Source of the DNA: an uncultured virus (IMG/VR IMGVR_UViG_3300006925_002811)
Lineage: Duplodnaviria; Heunggongvirae; Uroviricota; Caudoviricetes
Length of the DNA stretch: 64,000 nucleotides
Reading direction: 5' to 3' (one strand)
Virus record (IMG/VR): IMGVR_UViG_3300006925_002811
A program made the position numbers and the translations under genes. The first letter of the stretch is position 1. Every line of letters begins with the position of its first letter. The notes beneath the pieces are model-generated. The model ran no database searches. It was not told the origin of the DNA and was given only the letters and a program-made list of their open reading frames with translations. Of this stretch, positions 7,673 to 56,500 are shown piece by piece.

Positions 7673-7996
7673 ATGACATTTGTAGTAGGAAGCCCTTGCG
7701 TTGGCTGTAAAGATACTGAGTGTGTAACTGTTTGTCCTGTAGACTGTTTTTATGAAGGCCCAAACATGCTTGTCATTGATCCAGATGAATGTATTGACTG
7801 TGCGTTGTGTGAACCAGCATGTCCGGTTGATGCTATTTGGAGTGAGGATGAACTACCAGCAGATCAAATTCCTTTTATAGCCATTAACGCAGAAAAAGTA
7901 GAAGAATACAAAAACATTATTGATCAGCAACCTGCTATGGCTGAAGCCTCACCCTATTCAACACAAGAAGCAATAGATCTAATCCTAGCAGAATAA
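7673..7996 (+). CDS. fdxA: 7Fe ferredoxin (FdxA type)
   Basis: [18 protein letters not shown] and [12 protein letters not shown]. Confidence 0.92.
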
Positions 7997-8002
7997 CAAG
8001 TC

Positions 8003-8031
8003 AAAAAAAAGCACACCTAAGTGTGCTTTTT
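8003..8031. terminator. Bidirectional intrinsic terminator
   Basis: A8-GCACAC-CTAA-GTGTGC-T5 between convergent genes. Confidence 0.85.
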
Positions 8032-8055
8032 AATTCTATATAGTTTATACTAATC

Positions 8056-8349
8056 TTAGAAGTCGCAAACGCCTGCCCATGCAACACCAGCCTGTCCAAA
8101 TGCGTCTGATGAATCATCAGCAACTGCTGGTCCACCTTCGTACGCAACATGTACTGCTGTTGTAGCCGCTACTGCAAAGCCGTCAATACCTGTAACTGAG
8201 TAGTTCAAGTTTTGAAGTGCTTGGATAAGACCATCCATCTTAGCCTGTGTCATTCCACCTGCACCTGCGTGAGTGGCTGTAGCCACGTGAATGTCTCTTC
8301 CGAAACCGTTTAAGTCTTTAGTAAAACCGTTTACTTTAGTCTGTGCCAT
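8056..8349 (-). CDS. Small late protein, probably virion structural
   Basis: Ala/Gly-rich 97 aa starting MAQTKVNG behind GGAG RBS; late motif at 8402-8409. Confidence 0.7.
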   Translation of the reverse strand: MAQTKVNGFTKDLNGFGRDIHVATATHAGAGGMTQAKMDGLIQALQNLNYSVTGIDGFAVAATTAVHVAYEGGPAVADDSSDAFGQAGVAWAGVCDF

Positions 8350-13939: not shown

Positions 13940-16900
13940 TTAATCATACATTGTGAACTGAATCCAGGCATGAGTAGTTGTTCCAAAACTTCTACTGGCT
14001 CCTGTTTCTGCTTCACGTAATCTCAACTTTACTGCAACTGCTGAACTGCCGTTAAACAAAGTAGGTGAACCTGATGAACCACCGCCTGCTATTTGTCTCA
14101 ATCCCATTGTAGTTGACATTGGTACCAGTAAGTAGACATTGTTGACGTAGTCATATCCATATGCCATTACAGAACCTGGAGGATAATTATAAGTACCGCT
14201 ATCGAATGTTATAGTCATGTCGCCACCACTAGCACTATCAATAATAGCACTACTTATTCCTGTGCTTAGATTAGATGTTGATGTTAAGTTACCCGAACTA
14301 TCATAGTTTAGTTTGAATCTTAATACTTTAGCACCTGATCCGCCACCACCGCCGCTGTTATTATCTGCCGCTGGTGCCCAACTGGTACCGTTATATTTTA
14401 ATACTTGTCCTGATGTTACACCTGCTGTACTAACATCTGTTAATCCATTTAATGCAGTTGCACCACCGCCACCACCTGATTGGTCAACCCATGATAGGCC
14501 ACCTGAACCATCTGTTTTTAATACTTGATCTGCATCACCGTCTGTTGTTGGCAATGTTAATGTATAGTTTGCACCAGCACTATGAGCCGGGCCTTTAATT
14601 GTTATACCGTGTGAGTTATTCTCACAATTTAATTTAAACTGTCCTGAACCTTTAGTAGCATTACCTTTGAATACTACAACACCTGTTCCATTTGGATCTA
14701 AATCTATATCACCATTACTTAGAGTTACAATGTCTTTACCGTTAACATCTAAGTTGCCACCTAGTTGAGGTGATGTGTCTGAAACTACATCTGCTAGTCC
14801 ACCACCTGCTGGTCCAGTTGCACCCTGTGGTCCTGTAGCACCAGTATCACCCTGCGGTCCAGTTGCTCCTGTATTACCTGCTGGTCCTTGCGGTCCTGCT
14901 ACAGTACTGTTTGCTCCTGCTGGTCCTGTTGCACCAGTTGGTCCTGTATCACCAGTGTCACCTTTTGGGCCTGTTGGACCTGCTACGGTGCTGTCTGCAC
15001 CCTGTGGCCCTGTTGCACCTGTTGGTCCTGTAGCACCTGCACTACCGGCTGGCCCTTGTGGTCCAGCGGCACCAGTTGCACCTTTTATACTACCCAAGTT
15101 CTGTACAGAACTATTTGCGTATGTAAATATTAATTCGTCACTTGTGATTGCAACGTTAGTTACGCCGTTACCAGCGGCTCCTGTGCTTCCTGCTGGGCCT
15201 GTTGGACCTGTACTTCCTGCTGGTCCTTGAGGTCCTGTAGCACCTACTCCTGATAAATTTACTGTAGTACCATCATATGTTAAGTTACTTCCACTTAATG
15301 CTATAGTTGGTCTACTTGTTAAATCGTTAAATAATCCACTAGTTGCTACTGTACTTAAAGAACTAGTAGCCGCCTTAGTGGCTATTGAATTTGTTACTGT
15401 TGTGGCAAAATTAGGATCATCACCTAGTGCCGCCGCTAATTCATTTAGTGTATCTAATGTGCCTGGAGCACTATCAGTTATTGCCGCTACTATTGTTGAT
15501 TGGTTTGCAAATCCTTGTGCTGTTAAGTATGAACCAACATCACTATCTCCGTATGCTGATGCTGGTGTAGTAAATGTAAATGCACCACTACCGTTTGTTG
15601 TTAGTACTTGTCCGTTAGTTCCGTCTGAACCTACGTCTGTTAATGCTAATAAAGTAGATGAACCACCACCTGACTCTGCGGCATTTACCCATGCCGTACC
15701 ATTATACTTTAATACTTGTCCGCTACTTGGTGATGATATAGTTGTATCTGTTAAACTTACAACACTTGCAGTTCCGCTTGAACCACTGTTTGTAATTGTT
15801 AAAGTATCTGTTGCACTATTAGTTGTTATTGTAATACCAGAACCAGCCTCAATATTTAAGGTATCGTTCTCAGCATCAGCCACCATATTGTCTTGACCGT
15901 CAACTGCAAATACACCAAAGCCATTTCTTCTTATTGATGAGATATCAATTGTGCTACCGCCACTAATTCCTATTTCGTCTGTTGCGGCATTCCAAGAAAG
16001 TGTTTGAGTTGATGCGGCAATACTTACATTTGATACACTTGTAATTTTACCTGCACTATTAACTGTAAACTGTGGTAGGCTTGTAGAAGTACCGTATGTA
16101 CCTGCTGTAACACCACTTGCATCGTCAATAGAAACGTTTGATACGTTTGTAATTTGTCCTTGTGCATTAACTGTTATTTGAGGAATAACACTTATATCAC
16201 CATATGTCTTAGCAGTTACACCTGTGTCAGTTAATGATATAGCACCACTTGTATTGTTATATGTAATACCTGTGCTACCGCTTATGTCTGTTAAAGCAAT
16301 ACCTGTAGCATCAGTTAGTGTAAACGGCTCATACTTGCTAGTTGTACTGTTATACTTTAATACTTGTCCGTTTGTTGGTGACGTTGTACTAACATCGCCT
16401 ATTGCTGAAGTACTTAATCCTGCACCTATCTCAGATAAGTTAGCACTGATAGTCATTGTATCAGTACCACTATTAGTTGTAATGTCTATTCCATTACCAT
16501 CACTAAATGTAATTGTATCACTGGTGCCGTCTGCACCTATAGTTGTTTGACCTGTTACTGCAAAGTTTTTAAATGCTAGTTCAACGTTACCGCCTGAACC
16601 ACCACTACCACCTGATAAGGCAATAAGATCAACGTTTTGAATTCTTCCGTATGTGTCAACTGTTATTTGTGGTATTGTAGTTGTGTTACCATATACACCA
16701 CTTGAGACACCTGTTGCTACTAAGTTAATTGTTGCTGTAGATTGATTACCAGTACCACCGGATACTGTTATTTGTCCTGCTGTTCCTACTGCTGTTTCAA
16801 CATAGTCTGCTGTTAAACTTGTAGCCGCCGCTACTGTTATGTCTGTTGCTGTTACTGAAGTTACTTGACCTTGTTGGTTAACTGCAATTACTGGAACTTG

Positions 16901-20762: not shown

Positions 20763-20769
20763 ATTGTGT

Positions 20770-27328: not shown

Positions 27329-28081
27329 ATGTCCAGAAGAGCTAGAAAGAAAAACTGTAACAAATACAGAAAAAATAAACAACAAGGAGACCATTTGAGA
27401 GTAATACAAGGCGGTGCACCATTAGAGAGAATCCGCAATAAATCAGTCACAATCACACCAAGAAACTTCCATCAAGACGACCTCATAGGACTACTGGAAG
27501 ACAAAAACATTAATATAGTTTTTGCAGTAGGACCAGCAGGCACAGGCAAAACCATTATATCAACACTACAAGGAATCAAAGCACTCAAGACGGGTGGCTG
27601 TGATAAATTTGTAGTGACGAGACCAGCAGTCTCAGTTGACGAACAACATGGATTTTTACCAGGAACATTACAAGAGAAGATGGCGCCATGGACGCGACCT
27701 ATCTTTGATGTCTTTGAGGAATACTATACACCAGATCAAATCGAATACATGCTAGGCGATAACAAAGTAGAGATAGCACCATTGGCATATATGAGAGGTA
27801 GAACATTTAAGAACTCTTATATTATTGCAGATGAAATGCAGAATGCTACAGATAGCCAAATGAAAATGCTACTAACTAGAATAGGAGATAATAGTAAATT
27901 GGTAGTAACAGGTGACTTAGCTCAACATGATAGAGGATTTGAATCCAATGGTCTTAAAATGTTTATTGAACGTTTGTTATCGAGGCAATCCGATAGAATC
28001 AAATTAGTAAACTTTGATAATGGGGATATCGAAAGACACCCTGTTGTTGATGAAGTCTTAAGGATTTACGACTCAGTTTAG
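27329..28081 (+). CDS. phoH: PhoH-family ATPase
   Basis: GPAGTGKT, GFLPG, YMRGRTF, DEMQN, GDLAQHD, RHPVV. Confidence 0.95.
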   Translation: MSRRARKKNCNKYRKNKQQGDHLRVIQGGAPLERIRNKSVTITPRNFHQDDLIGLLEDKNINIVFAVGPAGTGKTIISTLQGIKALKTGGCDKFVVTRPAVSVDEQHGFLPGTLQEKMAPWTRPIFDVFEEYYTPDQIEYMLGDNKVEIAPLAYMRGRTFKNSYIIADEMQNATDSQMKMLLTRIGDNSKLVVTGDLAQHDRGFESNGLKMFIERLLSRQSDRIKLVNFDNGDIERHPVVDEVLRIYDSV

Positions 28082-29509
28082 CAGTTGTTCCTTTTTTAGT
28101 ACAATGTAACTCTGGATATGTTCTTCCGGAGTTGCATTACCTAAAGCATCTTCACAAATCTTTTCCCAAGGATCTATAGGCACAGAATATGTTTTTTTAG
28201 AAAACATTTGCTTTGCTATTCTCTGAGCAGAGTCAAAGTTACAATGTTCGTGTTGGTAATTGTATAATGCATTCACACCATCTGTAGTTTCACGTTCCTC
28301 TAATACTGTGATACCATACTTCTCAGGATTTTTTACAAAGTCTGAATTATGGTTTGCTCTGCCATGCATTTTTTCTAATAGCAATGGTTGTATTTGTAAA
28401 TCTGCTAAGTTGTTCTTTCGTATGTAATCAACAGACTCCCACATGTGTTCTATTGGTTCGTGAGGTAAGCCTACTATTTGTGTTGCAAACTTATGCCAAT
28501 GAGGGTATGTTTCTTTTATGTAATGCATGTTGCTAAAACTTTTATCTCTGTTCATTGTTTTCTTAATGCCTTTACTTGCCTCTGGGTGAAATGACTCAGT
28601 ACCCCAAAAGTGATAATGTACACCACATTCATCCAACCAATCCATCTGTTTCTTCTTGCCAATCATTACATCAAACCTAATGAATGCTGATATTTTTGGT
28701 TGATAGTTTAATTGTTTAATAGCATCTAGTAAGTATAGTATTTTTGTATCGTCCTCATTGAGAGTATCGTCTACACAATTAAAGTGTGTGATTCCATATT
28801 TTTCATTTGCTACTTTAAAAAATTCTAGTAATGCATCAGTTCCAGCATCATTAGTATTTTTAACATTGCGGAATTCAAATGCACAAAAACTACAATTAAA
28901 CTTACAGCCTAGTCTAGTTTCAAACCCAACTACATCACTAGGTTGTAAACAGTAGTCATCAAACAGTTTACTAACTATAGGCATCTCAACAAGTTCAGAA
29001 TCGCTTTTTGGTCTATAAACTGGAACGTTGCCGTACTCATAAGATAAGCATTCACTACTGATAGGCAAGCCGTCCATCCAGTGTTCGAACAAGTGTATTG
29101 ACCTGCCCATAAACATTAAATCTGGCTTTACATCATCGAATCTAAACCTGTTATTAGGACCTCCAATAATAACTGTTATGTCGTATTTTAACCGTAATTG
29201 CTTAATGATATAGTATGTTACAGTAGTATTCTTGAACATATTAGTGTTAAAAAGTGTGCTACAGAGCACGAGAGGGCGTTTAACAGCATGTTTATTACAC
29301 CATGCTACTATGTGTTCTACTATCTCATTAGGCTCCCAAAACTCAACCCAATTGATAACAGTACTGGGAACATCTCGTTTTAGTATCATTTCATGTAATG
29401 CAAACGGTGCCAGCGGACGCATCAGCATGTCTTTGCCTGCGTCATATCCTAATGCTTTATTTGTATTAGTTAACTCTAGAATTAGAGCACCATCAAAATG
29501 GTTAGCCAT
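28073..29509 (-). CDS. Radical SAM protein, B12-binding (class B)-like architecture
   Basis: GCKFNCSFC, N-terminal IIGGP Rossmannoid domain, DDT, GTES, IVGLP. Confidence 0.85.
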   Translation of the reverse strand: MANHFDGALILELTNTNKALGYDAGKDMLMRPLAPFALHEMILKRDVPSTVINWVEFWEPNEIVEHIVAWCNKHAVKRPLVLCSTLFNTNMFKNTTVTYYIIKQLRLKYDITVIIGGPNNRFRFDDVKPDLMFMGRSIHLFEHWMDGLPISSECLSYEYGNVPVYRPKSDSELVEMPIVSKLFDDYCLQPSDVVGFETRLGCKFNCSFCAFEFRNVKNTNDAGTDALLEFFKVANEKYGITHFNCVDDTLNEDDTKILYLLDAIKQLNYQPKISAFIRFDVMIGKKKQMDWLDECGVHYHFWGTESFHPEASKGIKKTMNRDKSFSNMHYIKETYPHWHKFATQIVGLPHEPIEHMWESVDYIRKNNLADLQIQPLLLEKMHGRANHNSDFVKNPEKYGITVLEERETTDGVNALYNYQHEHCNFDSAQRIAKQMFSKKTYSVPIDPWEKICEDALGNATPEEHIQSYIVLKKEQLLN

Positions 29510-29510
29510 T

Positions 29511-29843
29511 TTACCTAGTCTTGCGTATTTGGTAGTCGAATGGTTCTACTGTTTTTATTTCAAAAGGTTTACCAAATGCATCAACTCCTACGATCCATGT
29601 TGGTTTCTTTTTAGTTATTTTTTTAAGTAAGAATGTTTTCATTGTGCGTTTAATTGTTTTTGTACCTCTGTCACTAATTTCAGTCTCATTGTGAAACCAT
29701 ACTGTTAGTTCGTACTCGTTAACAAATAAAGCAATAAACCATTCCCACAGTCTTTTGTACCAAGGCAGACGTTTGATAGTAGTATGCTTTTGCTCTACTA
29801 CTTCTTGTTCTTTTGCCTGTTTTTTAGTTGGTACTTCTGCCAC
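29511..29843 (-). CDS. Hypothetical basic protein
   Basis: 110 aa, GGAG RBS, late motif at 29864-29871. Confidence 0.7.
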   Translation of the reverse strand: MAEVPTKKQAKEQEVVEQKHTTIKRLPWYKRLWEWFIALFVNEYELTVWFHNETEISDRGTKTIKRTMKTFLLKKITKKKPTWIVGVDAFGKPFEIKTVEPFDYQIRKTR

Positions 29844-29866: not shown

Positions 29867-31315
29867 TTATCTACCCTGTAGCCATTTGCTCTTGTTTTTG
29901 ATGTACCGTTTCACTATAAAATTGCGTTGTTGGTTAGCCAAGTTGTAATGATCGTTATACCAACGCCATTTTTCTCCAGGAATAAGTGTTTGCAATCCAA
30001 ATATTTCATGTGAAGTAAACTTGGATTCTAAGTTGTCACCTAAGTATATGTCTATTTTTGATGATAAGTCATCTGCACCGTCTGAGTCTGTCCAATCGTT
30101 TTGCCACACTTGTGAACTATACCCTAACTCTTCCCATTCCTTATCAGACCCTATAATCTCGTACCCAAACTTTTCAGGGTTTTTATCAAAGTCGCTCTCA
30201 ACGTCTGGATTTTCTAAGTTGCTGTATAGTCTCAAAGGATTACAGCCGCCGCTTGTTAGTAACTGCTCATCAACAATTTTTTCACAGTTCTTCCAAATGC
30301 TATCTTCTTTATCGCCAGTTAGTCCTATAATAAGATTACCGAATGTAAATGCTTCTGGGTATTCATTTTTTACCATTCGCAACGACTGTAGCATTCTTTC
30401 TGGTTTACCACCTTTACGAATTATTTTTGTTACTTCGGGTGTTAAACTTTCTATGCCAAAGAACATGCTGTTGATTCTTGCTTTTTGTATTAGTTCTATT
30501 TGATGTGGTTTTGCACCAAGTACGTCTGCTCTAGTAAAAGCCATGTAATTAGGTTTAAAGTCTAATTGATCATTAACTTTTGCTAACAGTTCTAACTTTG
30601 TGTCAACTTCGTTAATAGTATCATCTGCTAATACAAAATTAGTAATACCAAATTTATCGTGTGCAGACTTAATACTATTAAACAACTTCTCCTCATCTAT
30701 AAGTACAGGATTTTTATTGTTACGGAAATCGTATCCACAAAAACTACAATTAAACTTACAGCCTAATGCAATTTCAATAGTGTGTGTTTCACCTTCGTGC
30801 CAAAAGTCTTCTTCTTTTAGTATAGGTGCTACAGGTTTTTCTAGTATTTTGCCATGTGGGTTTTTATATGTTAGTGGATCTGTGGCAAACACATACTCAC
30901 TGATATCTTCTTTTTGTAACCACCTAGTAAATATATTTCCACTACGTCCTATGAACGCCATGTCTACCCAACTGCTTTCTCCAGTAGGAACACGATAGCC
31001 TCCAAGCATGACTTTGAGTTGTGGTACTTCTCTTTTTATTAGATGTACTAGTGTTTTAAATTCTTTTGTACTGCTACCGTCAATAGAGCCGCTTAGTCCT
31101 ATCCATGGTTCGTCGTCGTCTGCAAACCATTCTATAATGCTGTCTCTGATTAGTGCTGTGGACCAATTTCTCCAATAGTCAATGTTAGTTGCCTCAACAC
31201 CTAAGTTGTTTGCAACTTGTACAATATGCAGAGCACCGGAGGCTCTACTGTTGTTTTGTAACTGTCCTGCTCTTGTAGGCTTAGTTCCTAAGTCTGAGAG
31301 AAGTACAAATTTCAT
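29867..31315 (-). CDS. Radical SAM protein, B12-binding (class B)-like architecture
   Basis: GCKFNCSFC, MLGG, DDTIN, FFGIES, IIGLTG; paralogue of 28073..29509. Confidence 0.87.
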   Translation of the reverse strand: MKFVLLSDLGTKPTRAGQLQNNSRASGALHIVQVANNLGVEATNIDYWRNWSTALIRDSIIEWFADDDEPWIGLSGSIDGSSTKEFKTLVHLIKREVPQLKVMLGGYRVPTGESSWVDMAFIGRSGNIFTRWLQKEDISEYVFATDPLTYKNPHGKILEKPVAPILKEEDFWHEGETHTIEIALGCKFNCSFCGYDFRNNKNPVLIDEEKLFNSIKSAHDKFGITNFVLADDTINEVDTKLELLAKVNDQLDFKPNYMAFTRADVLGAKPHQIELIQKARINSMFFGIESLTPEVTKIIRKGGKPERMLQSLRMVKNEYPEAFTFGNLIIGLTGDKEDSIWKNCEKIVDEQLLTSGGCNPLRLYSNLENPDVESDFDKNPEKFGYEIIGSDKEWEELGYSSQVWQNDWTDSDGADDLSSKIDIYLGDNLESKFTSHEIFGLQTLIPGEKWRWYNDHYNLANQQRNFIVKRYIKNKSKWLQGR

Positions 31316-39466: not shown

Positions 39467-40313
39467 AATATGTATCCAATGTTGTTTCTGATATATTTAG
39501 ATATTGCTTTCGCTGTCTAAAGATAATATCTAAGTTGGGAGCCGCATTTGGAATAAGATTCTCGATAGTATAACTGTTTTCGTTGCCTACTGCATTACAG
39601 TTATATCCTCTAATCTTATGATTCAACTCGCCAAAGTCTAGATCTTTATCGTTATCAAATTTTCTAAGTACTACACCGTTTGACACATAGTTTGCTGTGG
39701 TTGTGAACACGTCATCAGTGTCACAAATAATTGAAGGTACATTACCGTCTGAGGTCTGTGTGTCCATTAGTATGCTAAATCTATTATTAGCACTTAAAAA
39801 TGTGTAGTATCTATCACCTGTCTTTGTAAACTTAAATCCAATCTCTTGGTAAAAGTCTCTCATTCTTGCGTCGATACTATTGTAAATAATACCGCTTACA
39901 TAATTTAGTCCTTGTTCGTTGCCTGGACTTTTAGTCTTTTCGAGTTGATGTAGAGAGCGTTGTAACTCACCAAACTCTTCTTCAGGCATTAACAATGTAC
40001 GCAACCCTACATTTGGTCCTGCTGGAGTAGTTTTAATATACATACCAGTATCATCTGGATCAGGTTTAGCACCAATACGTTGTATTACGTCCTTGCTACA
40101 GATAAAACCAATACCACTAATGCCTACTTTTTCAGGATTGCTTACAGACTTTATTATTAGTATACATAGATTCTGTGTCCATACAGTAACAGCACCTGTG
40201 CTGTTCCTTGTGCGTTTAGCAAAGCCAAGTTTTGTTAGTTGATCCTCTACCATGTTTATAGGCATAGTCGCAGGATCGTATGTGTATTCTAAGAAACTGT
40301 AGTCTACTTCCAT
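39444..40313 (-). CDS. HPPD-like (VOC/glyoxalase fold) protein lacking Fe ligands
   Basis: YSFLEY..LGF..VTVWTQ..II N-domain; ICDTDDVFTT; IIFRQRK. Confidence 0.6.
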   Translation of the reverse strand: MEVDYSFLEYTYDPATMPINMVEDQLTKLGFAKRTRNSTGAVTVWTQNLCILIIKSVSNPEKVGISGIGFICSKDVIQRIGAKPDPDDTGMYIKTTPAGPNVGLRTLLMPEEEFGELQRSLHQLEKTKSPGNEQGLNYVSGIIYNSIDARMRDFYQEIGFKFTKTGDRYYTFLSANNRFSILMDTQTSDGNVPSIICDTDDVFTTTANYVSNGVVLRKFDNDKDLDFGELNHKIRGYNCNAVGNENSYTIENLIPNAAPNLDIIFRQRKQYLNISETTLDTYYADNQTQ

Positions 40314-40711
40314 TATATATTAAACGTTACGCTCTCACCACATCCACAAGTACTTTCAGCAAGTGGCGATGATATCTCAATCATGTTACCTGCTATACTA
40401 GTTTTCTTGTCTACAGTACTGCCTATAAGATAAGGTTTACTCATGTTATCTAAGTAAAAACTCCATCCTTCGAATGCTATAGTAAATTCATCTAATCTTA
40501 CTGATGATGTATCCTCTACCATTTCCCATTCGTAAGCAAATCCGGCGCAACCTCCTCCTGTTAGTTTTAATCGAATGCCGTGTACATTGCTCTCTTCTGC
40601 TACTTGTTTGAAGTGAACCTGAGCACTCGGCGTTATGGTTATAAGTTCTTTTTTTGGATCGAATGTTTGCATACTAGTATTTAACCGTTTTGCATCGAAA
40701 ATTAAGTACAT
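40313..40711 (-). CDS. A-type Fe-S carrier (IscA/SufA/ErpA family)
   Basis: GGGCAGFAY and CGCGES. Confidence 0.92.
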   Translation of the reverse strand: MYLIFDAKRLNTSMQTFDPKKELITITPSAQVHFKQVAEESNVHGIRLKLTGGGCAGFAYEWEMVEDTSSVRLDEFTIAFEGWSFYLDNMSKPYLIGSTVDKKTSIAGNMIEISSPLAESTCGCGESVTFNI

Positions 40712-41168
40712 AACGACTACCTTGCTTTATTCTGTGTACTCCATGCATTGTATTGTAATCGTAATACACCATATCTCCCTGTTTTAGTTCCATTAAATGC
40801 CCTTCAACTATCAACTCTCCGCCTACATAATCATCTGGATGATTTAGTTGTACTATAACACTTAGGTCTGATTCTTCGAATTCGTGTTGGTCTTTGTGTG
40901 CTGGAATATGACTAGTGGTACTATACTTTAATACTCTTGCTTCAACTAGCTCACACGGTGGTAGATGCTTTTTAGTTTGGTTCCATGCATTTTGCAATTC
41001 TTCTTCAGTAAACTTGCTTAGTAAGAAATGTCCTACAAAACTAGGCCAATGCCTGTCTTTGGCAACACCATCTATTACAACGGTATTAGGTAGTTCTTTG
41101 TATTCTTTAAATACTGATACAATATCTGATAGTGATAATACATTAAAACGTAGGTTAACTTCTCCCAC
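40674..41168 (-). CDS. 2OG-Fe(II) oxygenase
   Basis: HKD, DYVGGEL, MHGV, RYVL. Confidence 0.85.
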   Translation of the reverse strand: MGEVNLRFNVLSLSDIVSVFKEYKELPNTVVIDGVAKDRHWPSFVGHFLLSKFTEEELQNAWNQTKKHLPPCELVEARVLKYSTTSHIPAHKDQHEFEESDLSVIVQLNHPDDYVGGELIVEGHLMELKQGDMVYYDYNTMHGVHRIKQGSRYVLNFRCKTVKY

Positions 41169-41755
41169 TACCTTTTCTCAACTATCTCGTCTGCCAGTCC
41201 CCAATCAATAGCCTCTTGAGCTGATAAGAAATTATCTCTATCCATACCTGCTTCAAATTCTGCATAAGTCTTACCCTTACTATTATGCTTTACATAGATT
41301 TCAGTAAGGTCTTTTTTCATACGTTCAATTTCAGCATACTGAATAGCAATATCAGATGCCATTCCTTGAGCACCACCTGATGGTTGGTGAATCATTGTTC
41401 TTGCTTTAGGTAGTACGAAACGTTTGCCTGCCGCACCTGCCTGTGCTAGTAGACTTCCCATCGAAGCCGCTTGTCCCATTACAATAGTTGATACGTCTGG
41501 CTTAATGTATTGCATTGTGTCGTACATAGCCATGCCTGATGTTACTACACCGCCCGGTGAGTTAATATAAAAACTGATATCAGCATCTTGATCTTCTGCT
41601 TCTAAAAATAATAGTTGGGCACAAATGCTGTTCGATACACCATCATCAACTTGTCCATTAAGAAACACAATTCGTTCTTTTAATAGTCTGCTGTAAATGT
41701 CGTAACTTCTCTCGCCTTGTGCTGTTTTCTCAATTACATATGGTACAAAGTTCAT
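41168..41755 (-). CDS. clpP: ATP-dependent Clp protease proteolytic subunit
   Basis: [30 protein letters not shown] triad. Confidence 0.96.
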
Positions 41756-41782: not shown

Positions 41783-41811
41783 ATTATACATGCTAAATTG
41801 CTTAATGTCAA
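41783..41811 (-). promoter_or_regulatory. sigma70-type promoter for clpP operon
   Basis: TTGACA-N17-TATAAT. Confidence 0.8.
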
Positions 41812-42203
41812 GCATTAGCAATGTTTTTTATTTGGTTGAGCATTGCCTGTAAGCCTTGCTTCTTTGCTAGTGATAAATTAGTTCCAAGAAATTTGTAGTC
41901 GTTGTATTCTATTTGGTTAACTTGGTCGACTGTTTTACCACCGATAGTATCACATAGTATGTATGCTATACCATTAGTAAACATTGTGTTACTGTAAAAA
42001 TTAAAGTACCATTTGGATTCTTTTTGTGTTCCTGCTATCCAAACGTTGCTTGTACAACCTCTAACATAATTTGCATTTACGCATACTTCTCTGCTGTTAG
42101 ATTTGTCTGCCTGCTTACCAACTGCCATTAACCAATCATTAAACTGGCTCTGGCTGTTAAAGTCTCTTACTGTTTGACGTATTTGTTCTAAGGTTTCAAG
42201 CAT
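41808..42203 (-). CDS. sufE: SufE-like sulfur acceptor
   Basis: VRGCTSNVWI with active Cys; start re-placed to MLETL after TAAATA. Confidence 0.75.
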   Translation of the reverse strand: MLETLEQIRQTVRDFNSQSQFNDWLMAVGKQADKSNSREVCVNANYVRGCTSNVWIAGTQKESKWYFNFYSNTMFTNGIAYILCDTIGGKTVDQVNQIEYNDYKFLGTNLSLAKKQGLQAMLNQIKNIANA

Positions 42204-42275
42204 ATAGATATTTATTAGTAGAGTCATAAAAAAGGCCCACTTAGTGAGCCTTAATTGTTTGAAGTGTTAGTAAAT

Positions 42276-44008: not shown

Positions 44009-44024
44009 ATTATATTAGTATTTA

Positions 44025-45055: not shown

Positions 45056-45056
45056 A

Positions 45057-46494: not shown

Positions 46495-47206
46495 CTTCTT
46501 CTGGATCTTTGTACTCGTCTCTCCACTGGTCTGTACTCCAGCCTACTTCGGCTTCGTAACTTTTACCCATTGTGTCGTTGTAGTCGTAATCTGCTTCTAG
46601 CCATACTTTGTCGTATGCTAGGTCCTCAACAAACTCACCCATGCAAGTTTCGTTAACTGTCATTGTAAGTTTCATTGGATCAAACTCTTCGTCTGTATCA
46701 ACAAACCAAGTAGCAAAGCCACCTTTCTCAACACTCATAAATGCCATTACAGGAGTACACCCTTCTGGTGTTTCACCGCTTGAATCAGTACTGATGTATC
46801 CACCTTCTCTGCCTTTAAGCCAATATGCTTCGCAACTGATTTCATTTTCATCATATTCGTAATCATCTGAACCATCTGCTGGAATACTTGATACTGTGAA
46901 GCCACCGTCTGCAAATGCGGCATTGATATGCTCTTTGTCATCTACTGCATACCATCCTTCTACTTCATTGCCATCTTCAAAAATATCCGGTGAGTCTTTA
47001 TCTATACCTTCTTGCTCATCGTCCCATTCACTAAGTGACAGTACATGGTCAATAAAACCACTTGAATGTGAACCATCTGCTTCTACTTTAGGTGCCCAGT
47101 ATTTGGCAAATTCTTCTGAGACAGTACCGATAGCACATTCGCCTCCATATCTACCGCCTTCAATTCTATATCTATATTTTGCCATTGTTTTCTCCTTAGT
47201 CTGCAA
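46442..47206 (-). CDS. Acidic hypothetical protein
   Basis: GRYGGE..IG, SVEKGGF; very D/E-rich. Confidence 0.75.
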   Translation of the reverse strand: MQTKEKTMAKYRYRIEGGRYGGECAIGTVSEEFAKYWAPKVEADGSHSSGFIDHVLSLSEWDDEQEGIDKDSPDIFEDGNEVEGWYAVDDKEHINAAFADGGFTVSSIPADGSDDYEYDENEISCEAYWLKGREGGYISTDSSGETPEGCTPVMAFMSVEKGGFATWFVDTDEEFDPMKLTMTVNETCMGEFVEDLAYDKVWLEADYDYNDTMGKSYEAEVGWSTDQWRDEYKDPEEDENMSEYWEEYDDEQEA

Positions 47207-47927
47207 ATGCTCTTTCTAGCAAGAAGTCTCCGCTTTCGCCAACATTACCTTCTTGCCAACCTAAACTTTTAAACATTGTTCTACAACCTTTGTTTAAATC
47301 CGGGGAACCACATACCATTACAGTATCTCTACCTTTAGTAAAACCACTTGGTAGATAGTCCTCTATGTAATTCCAAAACCTTCCAGGCCTTACATATGGT
47401 TCCTGAGTAACAGTATTAATATACACTAAACCTCGGAATAAGTCAACCAGATTATCTATTTCATTTATGTATGATAGTTCGTTAATGTTTCTTACAGTAT
47501 GGAATAAGTAGACATTCTTAAATCTATCGTATGTTTCGTAGTCACTTATAATACTCATAAATGGTGCTATACCAGTGCCTGTGCTTAATAGTACAAGGTT
47601 TTCACTAGGGTTCAAGTAATCTATAACTAAACTGCCCACTGTCTTAGGCTTTATTAGAATCTCATCGCCTTCTTGTATATTTTGTAAGATTGATGTTAAA
47701 GGACCGTTTGGTACCTTAATACTTAGGAATTCAATATGGTCATCATAGTTTGTACTGACTAAACTATATGCTCTGAACACTTGCTTTGCACCATTGTACT
47801 TTTCTTCTGGTAAACCTATCATAGCGAATTCGCCATTTTTAAATCTAAATGTTCTTGGTCTATTTGTAGTAAAACTAAAAAGCCTGTCGCTGTAGTGTGT
47901 TACTGAAGTTACCTCGACTGTGTGCAT
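47196..47927 (-). CDS. fpr: Ferredoxin--NADP+ reductase
   Basis: RAYS, GPLTS, TGTGIAPF, MVCGS, ERAF. Confidence 0.93.
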   Translation of the reverse strand: MHTVEVTSVTHYSDRLFSFTTNRPRTFRFKNGEFAMIGLPEEKYNGAKQVFRAYSLVSTNYDDHIEFLSIKVPNGPLTSILQNIQEGDEILIKPKTVGSLVIDYLNPSENLVLLSTGTGIAPFMSIISDYETYDRFKNVYLFHTVRNINELSYINEIDNLVDLFRGLVYINTVTQEPYVRPGRFWNYIEDYLPSGFTKGRDTVMVCGSPDLNKGCRTMFKSLGWQEGNVGESGDFLLERAFAD

Positions 47928-47930
47928 TTT

Positions 47931-52143: not shown

Positions 52144-52743
52144 TTAATAAAAGGCATTAGATGTGTCACTGTGGTCAGTAACATCTTTAACACCTGTTAA
52201 TTCTGGAAGTTCGTCCATTAGTTGCTTTTCAACACCATATTTAAGAGTTACATCAACTTGGGCACAACCTTGGCACCCTCCACCAAAACTTAGTATTGCA
52301 ACTTTGTCTTCTGTGATTTCAACTAAGTTGCACTCGCCACCGTGTGCGGCAATACCTGGGTTTACATCATTCCATAATACATAATTAACTTTTTCTTCTA
52401 GTGAGGCATCTTCACCTAGTCTAGGTAGTTTACTGTTAGGTGCTTTTATTGTTAGACTTCCACCGTATTCTTCTTGATCATAATTAACAGTTGCTTCATG
52501 TAAGAACTTAATACTTTGCTCATCGAGGTACACATTCAAGTGTTCAAACTCACGAAGTACTGTACCATCGTGATTACCTTCTCTACAATATGTTAATAAT
52601 GTTTCTGCTTTAGGAGTACCTGCTTTGTCAACATATAAACGTACACCAATAACATCATCTTGCTTAGATAGTAGTTCAGCCAAATACATCTGGGCTGGTT
52701 CAGTTACAGTTATACTATATTCATCTAGTGTTATTGTTGTCAT
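52144..52743 (-). CDS. nfuA: Fe-S biogenesis protein NfuA
   Basis: Degenerate A-type N-domain (AGTPKAE, LTIKAPN) plus Nfu domain GGCQGC, DVTDH. Confidence 0.93.
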   Translation of the reverse strand: MTTITLDEYSITVTEPAQMYLAELLSKQDDVIGVRLYVDKAGTPKAETLLTYCREGNHDGTVLREFEHLNVYLDEQSIKFLHEATVNYDQEEYGGSLTIKAPNSKLPRLGEDASLEEKVNYVLWNDVNPGIAAHGGECNLVEITEDKVAILSFGGGCQGCAQVDVTLKYGVEKQLMDELPELTGVKDVTDHSDTSNAFY

Positions 52744-52897: not shown

Positions 52898-53341
52898 TTA
52901 TTGCTGACATTGTTCTACCTCTATATTACTTTTATCTAAAAATTGTTTACCAGTGCCTTTTGCGGCCATATACTCCACATCATAATATACTTTACTTATC
53001 CCCGCTTGGTGTATAATTTTAGCACATTCAATACATGGTAAATGTGTACAAAACAATACAGCATCTTTACAACTATCGTTGCTTTGTGCAACTTTGGCAA
53101 TAGCATTAGTTTCTGCATGTAGCACTTCTGGTTTGGTATGCAAAGTTACTGTGCCTATGTCATGCTGTTCTTTAATTGTTTCGCATTCGTTATCCCAACC
53201 ACTAGGCATACCATTATAACCGATACTAATGATACGATTATCTTTTACAATAATACAACCTACTTGGGCACGTTTGGCTACACTGAGTTTTGCAGTCTCA
53301 TGAGCAATATTCATGTAATATGGAATCATTTTACTTTTCAT
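52898..53341 (-). CDS. dCMP deaminase
   Basis: GYNG, HAETNAI, PCIEC. Confidence 0.92.
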   Translation of the reverse strand: MKSKMIPYYMNIAHETAKLSVAKRAQVGCIIVKDNRIISIGYNGMPSGWDNECETIKEQHDIGTVTLHTKPEVLHAETNAIAKVAQSNDSCKDAVLFCTHLPCIECAKIIHQAGISKVYYDVEYMAAKGTGKQFLDKSNIEVEQCQQ

Positions 53342-54584
53342 ATTTGCTTACACTCACAGCGGAACTCCTACCTCCAAATCCAAAACTTGTTTTCATAAGT
53401 CTATTATAATCAAAATGCTTTTTACTATCAAATGTAAATGCAAAGTGTGATGTATCAAATGGCTCCACAAGTCCTGCATTACCTGGAATAAAGTCTTGTG
53501 TCATTGCTTCTGCACCCAGCACCAGTTCTATTAGACAACTAGCACCCATCATATGTCCTATCTGTCCTTTGTTACTGTATAACCAGGAGTCTTTGTTAAA
53601 GTATTCTTTTAGTACATTAAACTCTACAGGGTCGCCAACTGGTGTGCCTGTGGCATGTGCATTCACAACATTGTAATCTTCTTTTGTAGTACCTGCTCTA
53701 TCCATTGCTTGTTGTATTGCTAATCTACCACCAGTACCTTCTGGGTCCGGTTGAGTAGGGTGATGAGCATCACTGGCAATACCTATGCCGTCAATAACCC
53801 AACGTATGTTAGCACCTCGAGCCTCTGCTTTTTCTAAGGGTTCAACAATCAAGTACACACTACCCTCTCCTGGTATAATACCATCTCGGTCAATGTCCCA
53901 TGGTACACTCTTTGGTGTATTTGAATGGGCACCTAATGCCTGAAAGTAGTATAGTGTTGTACTTGACGTCATGAAATCTGTAGCACCTACGATAGCAACG
54001 TCTGTGCCCGTCTCTAAGTACTTTTCTGCTGTTTGTAATGCTTGTACACCAGAGATACATGTTGCGGCAATAACACTTGCAGGACCATGTATTTTATAAT
54101 GTTCGCTTATTACGTTACTAACATATTCTTGTGCAGAGTTAAGCAATACTTTAGGGTGTATTTTTCTTCTACCTTTGATTAGATCTGTTACCCAATCTAG
54201 TTCACTTAAACAACCACCTTGAATACTGCCCACAAACACTGGAGTATCTTCAGGTAATTTTTTTATTCCGCTCATCCTAACTGCTTCATCAACTGCAATT
54301 AAACTTGTAGTACAAATAGGATCTGAATAACGTTGATCTCTGTCTGGAACTAAATCGTCAATGTTTACATCATCGTAGTTTGCATGAAATATTTTGGATA
54401 GTTTCATTAGTGGTGATGCTATAGGGTCATCTTTAATCCTAGCATCTGCTAACGGCACTACCATGTCCTTTAAATTTTCTATATTAGTCGGTAAGTCATT
54501 TCCTAGTGGAGAAACAACTCCAACTCCTGTAACTGCCATTTTCATATCTTTGTGTCCTGCCTTAGTTTTTATATCGTTCTGCAA
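53331..54584 (-). CDS. fabF: Beta-ketoacyl-ACP synthase (FabF/KS type)
   Basis: ATCISG catalytic Cys, NAHATGT, KGQIGH, SFGFGG. Confidence 0.9.
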   Translation of the reverse strand: MQNDIKTKAGHKDMKMAVTGVGVVSPLGNDLPTNIENLKDMVVPLADARIKDDPIASPLMKLSKIFHANYDDVNIDDLVPDRDQRYSDPICTTSLIAVDEAVRMSGIKKLPEDTPVFVGSIQGGCLSELDWVTDLIKGRRKIHPKVLLNSAQEYVSNVISEHYKIHGPASVIAATCISGVQALQTAEKYLETGTDVAIVGATDFMTSSTTLYYFQALGAHSNTPKSVPWDIDRDGIIPGEGSVYLIVEPLEKAEARGANIRWVIDGIGIASDAHHPTQPDPEGTGGRLAIQQAMDRAGTTKEDYNVVNAHATGTPVGDPVEFNVLKEYFNKDSWLYSNKGQIGHMMGASCLIELVLGAEAMTQDFIPGNAGLVEPFDTSHFAFTFDSKKHFDYNRLMKTSFGFGGRSSAVSVSKYEK

Positions 54585-55017
54585 GGTACTTTTCGTGTTG
54601 TACCCACTTACCTTTTTTCATAAATCCCCATTCTCTTATCACTGGACCTGGAAAAAATAATGTCCAAACAGCAACGCCAGGCTCAAGCTCAACGCGATGA
54701 AGTTGACTACTGCCTGCAAGGCGTACCGTACCTGCGGGCCGCCAGTACTTGCCAGTCGGCGTATGTTCCCAATAACCCCCTTTAAGGATAATAGTGATAA
54801 AAGGCCAAGGATGATCGTGTAAGTCATCCGGATCTCCTTTGTGAAAGTTGTGTAGGAATATGTTAAACGGAAACCATTTCCTATCTTTTAAAAACAAGTA
54901 ATACCTTGTTAGGTACGGCTCGTTGTCTGCATCAAGTATAACTCTCTTTCTACCCAATTTTTCTAATAGTTTTAATATCATTTCCATCCACCAGCACTTG
55001 CTAATTGCATTGCCCAT
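54562..55017 (-). CDS. Cupin-fold protein
   Basis: LHDHPW..ILKGGYWE, HRVEL; true start probably ~30 nt downstream of the listed start. Confidence 0.8.
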   Translation of the reverse strand: MGNAISKCWWMEMILKLLEKLGRKRVILDADNEPYLTRYYLFLKDRKWFPFNIFLHNFHKGDPDDLHDHPWPFITIILKGGYWEHTPTGKYWRPAGTVRLAGSSQLHRVELEPGVAVWTLFFPGPVIREWGFMKKGKWVQHEKYLAERYKN

Positions 55018-56018
55018 AATCTATGACTTGTTGGACTAGGATAATTTACATTCATCTTTAGTTTTTGAAACGATATGTCGTTCCAATAATTTTGTACGTC
55101 TTCTATGCATTTTATTTGATGGTCTCTCCATGCTACAGGAGTTCCGAGAAGCCAACTCATCATGCAGTTAGGCTCTCTTAACAGCAATGCAGGATTACTA
55201 ATTTGTCTTCCTTCCAATAACTCTACACCGTCAAGTTGTGCATTAAATGTGGTCCAATCTAAATCTTGTGTTTTAGTTTTGTATTGGTCTCTTTCGTCTT
55301 TGTTGATACACCACGGATTAAAGTTCTTCCATAGCACAATATCTACGTTGTTATACTTTTGTATAATCTCATCTGCCCACACTAGAAACGATTTATCATA
55401 TTCGTATAACCATTCTTCAGCAGTTATACCTATTGTAGTACCTGTGTCGTTAGTGTATTTGTTAATCCATGGTGTATCATATAGATAACAAGCATTTGCA
55501 CATCTGTGTGGATCAGTTATTTGAATGCATAACTTAACTTCGTTATACTTATGTACCCACTGTGGTAACATACGTTCTGCTTTTTCAAACATGTTTGTTG
55601 TATGATCACCTGGCCATGCACTTTGATATAAATCACAGTCTAATAATTGTGACAACTTAGGACCCACTGGTTCTACAATTCCTCTTACAACACTTTCAAT
55701 AGATTCCCTTACTTCATTGCCAACAACCATATCTCTAATTTTGCCACCGTATGCCCAACTCTCTCCAAAGAACATAACTAATTCGTTGCTTTTTCTATAT
55801 ATCGCAAATTCAGTGTTAGGAAAATTATTTACTCTGCATTCTTGTCTAGTTTCGATCACATCACTTGCAGGTCTATCAAAAAACTCTGTACCAAATATAG
55901 AAGAATCATTTTCACTGTAATTGGGTGTATAAGTTCTTTTGTATTGATTATAGAGTACTTCAGGAAAATCTCCTGGTCCTCCCCTTGGTACTGTATTCGG
56001 AATTATTTCGTCGGTCAT
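54978..56018 (-). CDS. SGNH-like protein, degenerate catalytic motifs
   Basis: FFGESWAYG; C-terminal NYPSPTSHRLWA with Tyr at the usual His position. Confidence 0.55.
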   Translation of the reverse strand: MTDEIIPNTVPRGGPGDFPEVLYNQYKRTYTPNYSENDSSIFGTEFFDRPASDVIETRQECRVNNFPNTEFAIYRKSNELVMFFGESWAYGGKIRDMVVGNEVRESIESVVRGIVEPVGPKLSQLLDCDLYQSAWPGDHTTNMFEKAERMLPQWVHKYNEVKLCIQITDPHRCANACYLYDTPWINKYTNDTGTTIGITAEEWLYEYDKSFLVWADEIIQKYNNVDIVLWKNFNPWCINKDERDQYKTKTQDLDWTTFNAQLDGVELLEGRQISNPALLLREPNCMMSWLLGTPVAWRDHQIKCIEDVQNYWNDISFQKLKMNVNYPSPTSHRLWAMQLASAGGWK

Positions 56019-56500
56019 ACCAACCTATCTAATAATTTTGTATTTGACCTACTAAGGTGTGCATAGATGTTTTCAGCACAATGAAACAATGCTACATATA
56101 AACTTGTGCTGACTGCTATTTTAAAATCGAAGGGAATGGCCGCAACGTATGTATCTAGTAGCGAACCACCGCTTACAAGCCACACAGAGCCGTTTACAGC
56201 AACATGCCATATGCCTATAGCACTTACACTACCCCAAAAAAGGCTCTTTGTGTGCCTACTTATAGTAGGCGTAACAGCGAATACAGTAAGTATACTTGCA
56301 AGTATAAACCAGTTTACTGGCTCTAAAAATAGATTTGAGAATGCCATTAGTGCTACAGGAAGTAAGTATTGCAGTCTTTTATCGTCAGTTAACCTTGGCA
56401 TAAAGACAGCCAATGCTAACAGTGGTGTAAAGTTGGCAGGTAAACCTATAAATCTACTTGCAACCAATACTACTACCAAAAACATTAAATTTTTAAACAC
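56015..56500 (-). CDS. DUF6580-like small membrane transporter (S-component-like)
   Basis: SRFIGLPANFTPLLALAVF, N..VW, YVAAIPF; about 5 TM. Confidence 0.7.
   Translation of the reverse strand: MFKNLMFLVVVLVASRFIGLPANFTPLLALAVFMPRLTDDKRLQYLLPVALMAFSNLFLEPVNWFILASILTVFAVTPTISRHTKSLFWGSVSAIGIWHVAVNGSVWLVSGGSLLDTYVAAIPFDFKIAVSTSLYVALFHCAENIYAHLSRSNTKLLDRLV

Follow-up and report, generated by a model that had tools for sequence, protein, structure and literature searches.

Why does a phage carry iron–sulfur (Fe-S) cluster carriers, a sulfur acceptor, an electron chain and two radical S-adenosylmethionine (SAM) enzymes? The question is raised by a 64,000-nucleotide stretch of DNA from an uncultured member of the Caudoviricetes (IMG/VR record IMGVR_UViG_3300006925_002811; the whole stretch is hereafter called the window), in which eight genes between positions 7,673 and 56,500 encode an A-type carrier, SufE, NfuA, a ferredoxin, a ferredoxin–NADP+ reductase, two radical SAM paralogues and a DUF6580 membrane protein. 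A first-pass annotation had described them as a dispersed but self-supporting system, serving the radical chemistry of the phage itself rather than acting as generic auxiliary genes. All eight were found to be intact open-reading frames (ORFs) with significant family matches in Pfam and NCBIfam and with their key residues in place. In our view, the best explanation is a dedicated Fe-S supply chain for phage radical SAM enzymes, a reading that is likely yet unproven and that we give about an even chance of being right.

Source genome and related records

The window is part of the genome of an uncultured marine jumbo myovirus, and comparison of its clamp loader places it in kinship with PA5oct and Atu_ph07, with 55% identity to the Pseudomonas jumbo phage PA5oct group and 40–45% identity to Atu_ph07, Phosso, SCTP-2, XacN1 and others. 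Scanning of 82 window ORFs against Pfam and 31 against PHROGs identified phage hallmarks, among them PhoH, virion and tail-fibre proteins, and a clamp loader of the T4 type. The fraction of G + C is even across the window (0.36–0.41), and almost all genes between about 1.7 and 58.3 kb lie on the minus strand. A DNA search of a phage collection with 20 kb of the window returned no match. A second IMG/VR record, G001 (62.6 kb, CheckV completeness 27%), is 100% identical to window positions 31501–64000 and extends about 30 kb past the right end, giving 94 kb of available sequence in total (window position = 94101 minus G001 coordinate). On this identity, G001 and the window are taken as one and the same genome, and 62.6 kb at 27% completeness would put its size at about 230 kb.

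Three anchors, the clamp loader, NfuA and the radical SAM family, led to 64 distinct IMG/VR records of relatives. Of these, 48 were searched whole, including the window's own genome piece (G035), which ends before the radical SAM genes; the 16 dropped were near-duplicates, contigs shorter than about 20 kb, and two records with a 34% clamp-loader match.

Iron–sulfur proteins encoded in the window

The A-type Fe-S carrier (ErpA/IscA-like; 40313..40711, minus strand) matched PF01521 (E = 3.1e-10) and scored 67.7 bits against TIGR00049, above the cut-off of 58.8, with the three conserved cysteines present as Cys55, Cys122 and Cys124. Its score of 70.4 bits against the ErpA equivalog, below the cut-off of 117, does not fix the subtype. 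The SufE-type sulfur acceptor (41808..42227, minus strand) matched PF02657 (E = 2.9e-18; 66.2 bits, cut-off 27) and scored below the SufE and CsdE equivalog cut-offs of NCBIfam, and its active-site, persulfide-accepting Cys58 is invariant in all 12 phage SufE sequences. NfuA (52144..52743, minus strand), with Pfam matches to NifU and Fe-S_biosyn, combines a degenerate A-type domain and an Nfu domain, has a CxxC motif at 157/160, and reached 250.4 bits over its full length against TIGR03341, just below the cut-off of 269.35.

The putative electron pair consists of a 107-residue ferredoxin of the FdxA type and an Fpr-type reductase. The ferredoxin (7673..7996, plus strand) matched Fer4 (E = 3e-08) and phrog_8732 (E = 3.6e-37) and scored 125.9 bits against FdxA_Protbact (NF045490), below the cut-off of 135. 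Its cysteines lie at positions 9, 12, 17 and 21 and at 40, 43, 46 and 50, a layout that we take to fit the 7Fe FdxA pattern C-x2-C-x4-C-x3-CP followed by C-x2-C-x2-C-x3-CP. The start of this gene abuts the stop of a 216-residue ORF (7022–7672) with a weak 2-oxoglutarate (2OG)-Fe(II) oxygenase match (phrog_81, E = 4.1e-07), and together the two (7022–7996) form a small plus-strand island within the minus-strand region. The ferredoxin/flavodoxin–NADP+ reductase (243 residues; 47196..47927, minus strand) has FAD_binding_6 and NAD_binding_1 domains; its top NCBIfam match, PRK10926, covers the full length (E = 5e-35), yet its 120.9 bits are far below the cut-off of 390. Among the Fe-S proteins of the window, the A-type carrier subfamily model was the only NCBIfam equivalog-level cut-off passed.

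In tblastn searches of 50,697 phage records, NfuA had 6 matches, the A-type carrier 11 and the ferredoxin 14, while the window radical SAM protein had none. Judging by their titles, many of the records matched by the Fe-S genes are pieces of bacterial genomes or unannotated fragments. Such a gene set is far from ordinary for phages, and very rare.

The gene set continues past the window

Examination of G001 positions 1–32000, with 36 ORFs scanned against Pfam and NCBIfam, showed that Fe-S and stress genes begin about 500 bases beyond the right end of the window, on the same strand as the window genes. The last 93 bases of a peroxiredoxin gene (Redoxin; 3′ end at 63908..64000, minus strand) are inside the window and the remainder lies upstream, outside it. 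Farther upstream are genes for a SufS-type desulfurase, ClpS, Hsp20, two DUF6552 proteins, IscU, IscS, a ferritin-like protein (PF00210, E = 5.2e-17) and cytochrome c, and farther along G001 are ClpX, a QueD-like 6-pyruvoyl-tetrahydropterin synthase, ribosomal protein S21 and peptide deformylase. The stretch also holds a glycosyl hydrolase of family 6; S21, cytochrome c, peptide deformylase and this hydrolase lie at L120:304-729, L120:1506-1955, L119:553-1059 and L119:1068-1910, respectively. IscS (G001 22404–23675) passed the cut-offs of two IscS models, with 679.9 bits against NF010611 (cut-off 548) and 677.3 against TIGR02006 (cut-off 643.2).

The kit of this genome, therefore larger in gene content than first described, comprises two sulfur-mobilising pairs, IscS–IscU and SufS–SufE, as well as two late carriers, genes for iron storage and an electron pair, while no HscA/HscB, 2Fe-2S Fdx, IscR or SufBCD gene was seen in the 94 kb available. 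The description "self-supporting" fails for the stretch between 7,673 and 56,500, since both desulfurases and the scaffold lie outside it, and fits the genome better than the window. Compared with the ISC and SUF systems of E. coli and Azotobacter, the protein families and key cysteines are alike and the phage IscS passes the equivalog cut-off. The phage genes differ in being virus-encoded, scattered outside isc/suf operons and incomplete as a set, and several products score below the bacterial equivalog cut-offs (bits/cut-off: NfuA 250/269, FdxA 126/135, Fpr 121/390, IscU 157/192, SufS 295/475). IscS is 63% and NfuA 43–45% identical to Acinetobacter and Salmonella sequences in mislabelled phage-collection records, which suggests a gammaproteobacterial source and, probably, a gammaproteobacterial host.

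Two radical SAM paralogues of an apparently virus-only family

The sole recognisable Fe-S clients within the window are two virus-only radical SAM proteins encoded on the minus strand, each with a B12-binding-like N-domain. Paralogue 1 (482 residues; 29867..31315) matched PF04055 at E = 2.4e-15 and has its CxxxCxxC motif at 186/190/193, and paralogue 2 (478 residues; 28073..29509) matched at E = 5.7e-10 with the motif at 202/206/209. Both matches, at 57.5 and 40.1 bits, exceed the cut-off of 29.5, and the barrel fold matches as well. The two are indeed paralogous, as proposed, with 28% identity over 409 columns (E = 3e-46).

Homologues of the radical SAM protein number 238 among 5.8 billion proteins, all of them metagenomic and on contigs of up to 320 kb, and its neighbours in the ESM Atlas form entirely viral clusters. 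Among the 120 homologues listed, 2 carry a precomputed match to the B12-binding family PF02310. A scan of 185,579 prokaryote species (one genome each) returned only 37 loci, with 19–31% identity over parts of the core and 21–31% for the best. These searches indicate a family that is apparently phage-specific, with the caveat that the species scan was seeded by two peptide patterns and may miss distant cellular relatives. Relatives 90–99% alike were present in seawater sequencing runs, whose assembled contigs are of doubtful RNA status and allow no conclusion on expression. One contig in the seawater set X1 appears to skip 28044–31357, but with 21 letters on one side only it was not counted.

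In an alignment of 38 family members (A1), the cysteines equivalent to C186, C190 and C193 are invariant in every sequence and no other cysteine is conserved or near-invariant, indicating that an auxiliary cluster of the MiaB, LipA or BioV type cannot be bound. A reading of these proteins as methylthiotransferases (MiaB/RimO/MtaB) was rejected: the N-domain cysteines are absent from all 38 sequences, which excludes the MiaB type, and Pfam gave no match to the UPF0004 N-domain.

The N-termini had been described as B12-domain-like, and structure prediction bore this out at the level of the fold. An AlphaFold2 (AF2) model of paralogue 1 (predicted local distance difference test score, pLDDT, 92.6; predicted template-modelling score 0.89) found as structural neighbours CysS (Z = 20.9), AprD4 (20.8), TsrM (20.4), MgmA/QCMT (20.2), OxsB (19.8), RimO (19.2) and MiaB (19.1). 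With the class I cobalamin radical SAM enzymes (CysS, TsrM, OxsB, TokK, QCMT/MgmA), the phage protein shares an N-terminal five-stranded Rossmann domain, a partial TIM barrel bearing CxxxCxxC and a C-terminal domain, at Z scores of 19.8–20.9 over 353–419 residues but with only 10–16% identity. AprD4 (PDB 6fd2) has the same three-part architecture at 13% identity and gave the lowest root-mean-square deviation (rmsd) of all, 3.4 over 382 aligned residues. In a 2026 review, AprD4 and ArsL homologues are described as having Rossmann-related domains yet binding no cobalamin (PMC12931638). Because AprD4 ties with the cobalamin enzymes and yet binds none, fold alone cannot separate the two possibilities.

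AprD4 is a radical SAM 1,2-diol dehydratase that works with a short-chain dehydrogenase/reductase (SDR) partner in aminoglycoside deoxygenation, and one alternative to a B12 enzyme follows its example. Here the Rossmann-like domain would hold no cobalamin, the enzymes would carry out an AprD4-like dehydration or rearrangement on a sugar or nucleotide-sugar together with SDR- or dehydrogenase-like neighbours, and DUF6580 would import some other vitamin, for instance a precursor of NAD. Consistent with this, PF02310, the B12-binding family, matched residues 27–109 of paralogue 1 at E = 0.0014 and 18.9 bits, below the cut-off of 32.1, so that the sequence support for the first description of the N-termini is weak. 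Rfam at gathering thresholds found only three tRNA genes in the window (Leu-taa, Met-cat and Arg-tct at 2550–2636, 4001–4077 and 4082–4158, all on the minus strand) and no riboswitch, the cobalamin riboswitch included. Other sequence features point the opposite way. At E ≤ 1, PF02310 matched 22 of the 38 A1 members, the best at 4.5e-07. Ser75 and Gly105-Gly106, where strands 3 and 4 end, are invariant in A1, and Arg24-x-x-Gly27, before helix 1, is near-invariant; we take these to correspond in position to the SxL, GG and (D)xHxxG motifs of domains that bind cobalamin, the arginine being comparable to TsrM Arg69. The best weak NCBIfam matches are class B enzymes in every case (for paralogue 2, PhpK at 44.6 bits and a ladderane-lipid enzyme at 41.3, far below the cut-offs). 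The sequence evidence thus leans towards B12, and we predict, as a rough estimate, that cobalamin binding by these enzymes is somewhat the better bet, with the cobalamin-free alternative held as a tentative but serious possibility.

Putative sugar- and lipid-related genes in the region

The surroundings of the radical SAM genes count in favour of the cobalamin-free alternative. Within 4 kb lie an SDR gene (32398–32934), a 2OG oxygenase gene (32972–33622) and a truncated UDP-glucose (UDPG)-dehydrogenase-like gene (34390–35202), and Pfam identifies SDR genes near the phage radical SAM enzymes. In four relatives, a radical SAM gene overlaps a UDPG-dehydrogenase-like gene. In record G027, positions 162000–180000 (L121) hold nine PF04055-matching ORFs in a row. 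In five of these the SPASM domain, which usually lies at the C-terminus, is N-terminal. Interspersed among the ORFs are carbamoyltransferase, WYL_2, NeuB-like and full-length UDPG/GDP-mannose dehydrogenase genes; from its gene content this array looks like a sugar-modifying cluster. Similar radical SAM arrays occur in G043 (252–271 kb), G046, G032, G039, G045 and G044. Several relatives' radical SAM genes carry SPASM auxiliary-cluster domains, and cytidylyltransferase genes are found at window positions 57252–57689 and in G001. Our best guess from this gene content is that the product would be a modified sugar or nucleotide-sugar.

A lipid target is possible, given the acyl carrier protein (ACP) and ketoacyl-ACP synthase (KAS) genes in the window. 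Fatty-acid-type genes in the region are the ACP gene at 21610–21867, the short SDR gene at 32398–32934, whose best matches are 3-ketoacyl-ACP reductases, and the KAS gene at 53331–54584. Window positions 2644–3324 match the same places in relatives as this SDR gene.

The DUF6580 membrane protein

The DUF6580 gene (56015..56500, minus strand) encodes a membrane protein matching PF20221 (E = 3.9e-15; 56.9 bits, cut-off 27), for which a role as candidate cofactor importer had been proposed. Its 113 homologues are all metagenomic, none of 14 control genomes matched the family, and a literature search found no paper containing the word DUF6580. The AF2 model (pLDDT 83.7) is a bundle of six to seven helices. 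Foldseek gave no match at E ≤ 0.001, and sequence searches of solved structures, by single sequence and by profile at E ≤ 10, gave no relevant match. In an exhaustive VIA-align comparison BtuM ranked first (Z = 13.8, rmsd 2.3, 145 of 161 residues), a score to be read with the caveat that helical bundles can reach Z of 13–14 through arrangement alone. Twelve other energy-coupling factor (ECF) S-components followed at Z of 8–11, and then unrelated helical proteins at Z ≤ 6. Given this clean block of S-component matches, a solitary ECF S-component fold was accepted.

BtuM (PDB 8ovv, 8c7p) is similar in its small six-helix S-component fold with no ECF module in sight. The differences are in the sequence, with 10% identity and no sequence match. 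BtuM is defined by an invariant and essential loop-3 cysteine, Cys80, which ligates cobalt (PMC6072759), and this residue has no counterpart in DUF6580: no cysteine is conserved in 36 sequences and none occurs in the loop-3 consensus. The invariant residues are instead R16, N23, P26, A31, L59, W98, V102, N103, A121, F124, D125 and T132. The proposal of an importer is supported by the fold and the best structural match, and the protein lacks the cysteine that defines BtuM. A cofactor importer is likely.

As to which cofactor, BtuM lies about 3 Z units above the other S-components, which speaks for a corrinoid, while the missing cysteine and the adjoining genes suit another vitamin. The start of the DUF6580 gene is overlapped by 16 nt by a gene for a P-loop, APS (adenosine 5′-phosphosulfate)-kinase-like domain fused to a nucleotidyltransferase-like part (56485..57255, minus strand; APS_kinase E = 1.1e-11, CTP_transf_like E = 3.9e-4), residues 149–208 of which have weak NCBIfam matches to NMN adenylyltransferase, and NadE is encoded 12 kb away. 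In the ESM Atlas, a 346-residue ORF adjoining DUF6580 matched viral hypothetical clusters only.

Gene order around SufE, ClpP and IscA in relatives

The link between the Fe-S genes and the radical SAM enzymes, which had been proposed from the window, found its main support in the gene order of relatives. A conserved backbone consists of SufE, ClpP, in some cases a 2OG oxygenase, IscA, about ten core genes, a UDPG-dehydrogenase-like gene, the clamp loader, a 110-residue ORF and PhoH, and it is at the two ends of this backbone that radical SAM genes are found inserted. In the window, this block contains ClpP (41168..41755, minus strand; CLP_protease E = 7.5e-78) in the middle and a 2OG-Fe(II) oxygenase (40674..41168, minus strand; 2OG-FeII_Oxy_3 E = 5.2e-09) between ClpP and the A-type carrier, a position kept in relatives. 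Of the 23 SufE-positive records, 12 have a PF04055 gene no more than 3 kb from SufE, in about seven arrangements; in the remaining 11, the window's genome included, the nearest radical SAM gene is 8–11 kb off or not on the contig.

The arrangements range from a contiguous SufE–radical SAM (689 residues)–ClpP–IscA run with gaps of at most 45 nt (G027), through radical SAM, UDPG-dehydrogenase-like and SufE genes with overlapping ends (G020, G021, G023 and G025), to two radical SAM genes followed by SufE and ClpP (G015), a radical SAM gene and a 71-residue ORF followed by SufE and ClpP (G018 and G019), and SufE 2 kb from two A1-family genes (G007). A second B12-type radical SAM family, of 611–689 residues and absent from the window, adjoins the SufE–ClpP block in relatives: it is part of the contiguous run in G027, stands divergent to the block in G006, and lies at a distance of 2 kb in both G032 and G036; its G032 member scored 44.5 bits against PF02310, above the cut-off of 32.1. 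At loci L013, L016, L018 and L030, ClpP and a radical SAM gene either abut or share 4 nt; within a more distant group, 6 of 40 loci have an A1-family gene directly after ClpP, two of them with a 4-nt overlap. A complex prediction for the radical SAM enzyme with SufE scored 0.00, which counts neither for nor against binding. Taken together, the gene-order pattern gives moderate support to a functional tie between the Fe-S kit and the radical SAM enzymes.

Co-occurrence across relatives

Among the 48 records, matches were found to the A1 family in 29, any PF04055 gene in 40, SufE in 23, PF01521 in 21, ferredoxin in 14, NifU in 12, DUF6580 in 11, Aminotran_5 (class-V aminotransferase) in 11, Fpr in 10 and IscU in 6. 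Absences mean little here because most of the records are fragments. Among the large records, G027 (66% complete) has 12 PF04055 genes with a carrier, SufE, ferredoxin and Fpr; G032 (91%) has 11 with SufE, ferredoxin, Fpr and a desulfurase; G036 (59%), probably the same phage, has 2 with the gene set of G032; G043 (100%) has 14 with a carrier and Nfu; G046 (56%) has 15, the highest number in the relatives, with a carrier; and G028 (100%) has 5 with one weak carrier match. Such numbers point to a high Fe-S requirement in the clade, and all four large genomes with at least 11 radical SAM genes hold at least one Fe-S biogenesis gene. Five cultured genomes were searched for six families, Fpr and DUF6580 not being among them, and PA5oct, SCTP-2 and XacN1 had neither a radical SAM gene nor any of the six.

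Co-occurrence of the Fe-S genes with radical SAM copy number had been proposed as a check. Radical SAM counts were higher in genomes with an Fe-S biogenesis gene (Mann–Whitney p = 0.017, n = 13 large genomes), and this trend was not significant among the 8 uncultured IMG/VR records alone (p = 0.32). The co-occurrence statistics are too small and confounded to decide, and are suggestive only.

A dedicated supply chain or general host maintenance

In the favoured explanation, a nearly complete bacterial Fe-S toolkit of gammaproteobacterial appearance would have been kept over long phage evolution. IscS and the SufS-type desulfurase (the two just outside the window), with SufE, would mobilise sulfur, IscU would act as scaffold and the ferritin-like protein would handle iron (both outside the window), the A-type carrier and NfuA would make the late 4Fe-4S delivery, and the Fpr-type reductase and FdxA-type ferredoxin would provide low-potential electrons. 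NfuA and ErpA of E. coli hand 4Fe-4S clusters on to radical SAM enzymes, LipA and MiaB among them, and the clusters of such enzymes are physiologically reduced by Fpr together with flavodoxin or ferredoxin. The phage carriers may likewise load the phage radical SAM enzymes and Fpr/FdxA may reduce them, with the enzymes binding cobalamin and DUF6580 importing a cofactor. Most likely, the toolkit would sustain cluster supply and reducing power for Fe-S enzymes brought by the phage, and incidentally for those of the host, during infection in what is probably an oxic, iron-poor setting.

The same genes could instead be a generic auxiliary kit that props up host metabolism, such as respiration and nucleotide or cofactor synthesis, in iron-poor, oxic surface water, with no special tie to radical SAM enzymes. 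A number of observations weigh against a dedicated supply chain, and most of them suit this alternative. Within the window, the eight genes occupy at least five separate sites across 49 kb amid nucleotide, NAD, lipid and chaperone genes, 10.5 kb separate SufE from the closest radical SAM gene, and the ferredoxin has a 2OG-oxygenase-like ORF and no radical SAM gene as its neighbour. The same genome has a broad stress kit (ClpB, DnaJ, ClpP, ClpX, ClpS, Hsp20, peroxiredoxin and ferritin, with cytochrome c alongside) that fits general host maintenance too. Among the relatives, the adjacency of SufE and radical SAM genes might be no more than the outcome of two insertion hot spots on either side of a conserved core block of 10 kb. 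The A1 family is missing from five large records, four of which still hold SufE, a carrier or ferredoxin, and carriers without the A1 family occur in G039 (82 kb; three PF01521 genes), G043 and G046 (one each). Conversely, radical SAM genes occur without any of the Fe-S families in G029 (65% complete, 7 PF04055 genes) and G044 (100%, 5 genes), and two cultured phages, Atu_ph07 and Phosso, each carry 4 radical SAM genes and lack all six families tested; G043, with its 14 radical SAM genes, has no SufE, ferredoxin, Fpr, desulfurase or IscU. The association by presence and absence gave a Fisher p of 0.12, and the 13 genomes are kin in which habitat is confounded with culture status. Fe-S assembly genes are, moreover, described as common auxiliary genes of photic-zone viruses, scattered among four virus groups and often lacking in close relatives (PMC5332604).

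What the generic alternative does not readily accommodate is the close and recurrent placement of B12-type radical SAM genes from two families next to SufE, ClpP and IscA, in several independent arrangements, nor the contrast between the four genomes richest in radical SAM genes, all with Fe-S biogenesis genes, and the three radical-SAM-free cultured relatives, all without. We consider a generic kit somewhat unlikely, though the patchiness of the carriers in near-complete relatives, with G044 as the clearest case, means that the phrase "rather than generic auxiliary genes" was not substantiated.

A more ambitious version of the dedicated supply chain would have the virus run a largely autonomous metallocofactor economy, with corrinoid import through a cysteine-less BtuM-like carrier serving a virus-exclusive family of cobalamin-type radical SAM enzymes, together with SPASM-type ones encoded elsewhere in the genome, whose product would be a modified sugar for the virion or DNA; as a whole, this is improbable. 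Finally, sulfur trafficking, in which the desulfurases and SufE would supply persulfide for thio-modifying tRNA, DNA or a small molecule and the relatives' radical SAM enzymes would insert sulfur, can draw on the direct adjacency of SufE and radical SAM genes in relatives, on MiaB, RimO and MtaB among the top structural matches (Z = 18–19), on the 435 bits of IscS against the DndA model (cut-off 480) and on the tRNA genes, but is very improbable given that CxxxCxxC provides the only invariant cysteines of A1, that IscU, the A-type carrier and NfuA handle clusters and are not sulfur relays, and that IscS passes the cut-offs for IscS and not that for DndA.

Other genes of the region

For the 110-residue ORF between the two radical SAM genes (29511..29843, minus strand), a role as their products' peptide substrate or partner was considered and rejected. 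It is present in 15 of the 48 related records, lies directly after the clamp loader in G034, a record with no PF04055 gene, and occurs in G032 and G036, both of which lack the A1 family. It belongs to the core genes and accompanies the clamp loader, outside the Fe-S system, and it bears no similarity to the gene that occupies this slot in PA5oct.

The Fpr gene is embedded in a run of nucleotide and NAD genes (43085–48817 and 52898–53341) encoding NAD synthase, a protein of the GMP reductase/IMP dehydrogenase family, a phosphoribosyltransferase, a gamma-glutamyl cyclotransferase-like protein and dCMP deaminase. A cupin gene (54562–55017) matched phrog_4786, annotated as cysteine dioxygenase (E = 5.2e-38), and is kept near NfuA and DUF6580 in relatives; it is curious that a candidate cysteine-consuming cupin occurs alongside cysteine desulfurases in the same genome. 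The proteostasis set is divided between the window (ClpB and DnaJ within 18570–21570, ClpP at 41168–41755) and the sequence outside it (ClpX, ClpS and Hsp20 within L119:19043-19999 and L120:7576-8399). A tail-fibre-like protein of 1106 residues (13940–17260) contains collagen triple-helix repeats, and a 156-residue ORF (37482–37952), kept in 22 of 40 loci, matches only positions 20–94 of the DNA polymerase III alpha NTPase domain.

Relation to earlier work and significance

The general idea that viral Fe-S assembly serves viral clients is already published for marine viral genomes (PMC5332604). In the portion of that article available, Nishimura and colleagues (mSphere, 2017) describe marine viral genomes with an A-type carrier or IscU together with up to 12 radical SAM genes, among them a 183-kb genome with an A-type carrier and all 12, count ClpP as Fe-S-related, and propose that viral assembly proteins serve both host and viral Fe-S proteins (PMC5332604). 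Their genomes resemble the present one in coming from uncultured marine T4-like or large phages and in having Fe-S assembly genes beside many viral genes for Fe-S clients. In the same portion, they report A-type carriers, IscU, Grx, PaaD and Cas4; relative to that list, this genome adds IscS, a SufS-type desulfurase, SufE, NfuA, the FdxA/Fpr pair and a ferritin-like gene in a single phage, and its relatives juxtapose B12-type radical SAM genes with SufE, ClpP and IscA. Literature searches on jumbo phages with radical SAM enzymes found nothing on this topic by title or abstract, and searches on desulfurases or IscU in phages found no such gene set described by title or abstract. What is new here is that a single genome holds so broad a kit and that SufE–ClpP–IscA and radical SAM genes stand side by side, together with the phage-only B12-domain family and the BtuM-like DUF6580.

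If the link to radical SAM enzymes is true, the genome shows how far a phage can carry its own cofactor logistics, down to both types of desulfurase, a scaffold and two late carriers, along with iron storage and an electron pair. The phage-only B12-domain radical SAM family, with its 238 metagenomic homologues and no close cellular relative, and the small BtuM-like DUF6580 membrane protein family are targets for experiments, and the phage Fpr/FdxA pair and NfuA could help the expression of difficult radical SAM enzymes.

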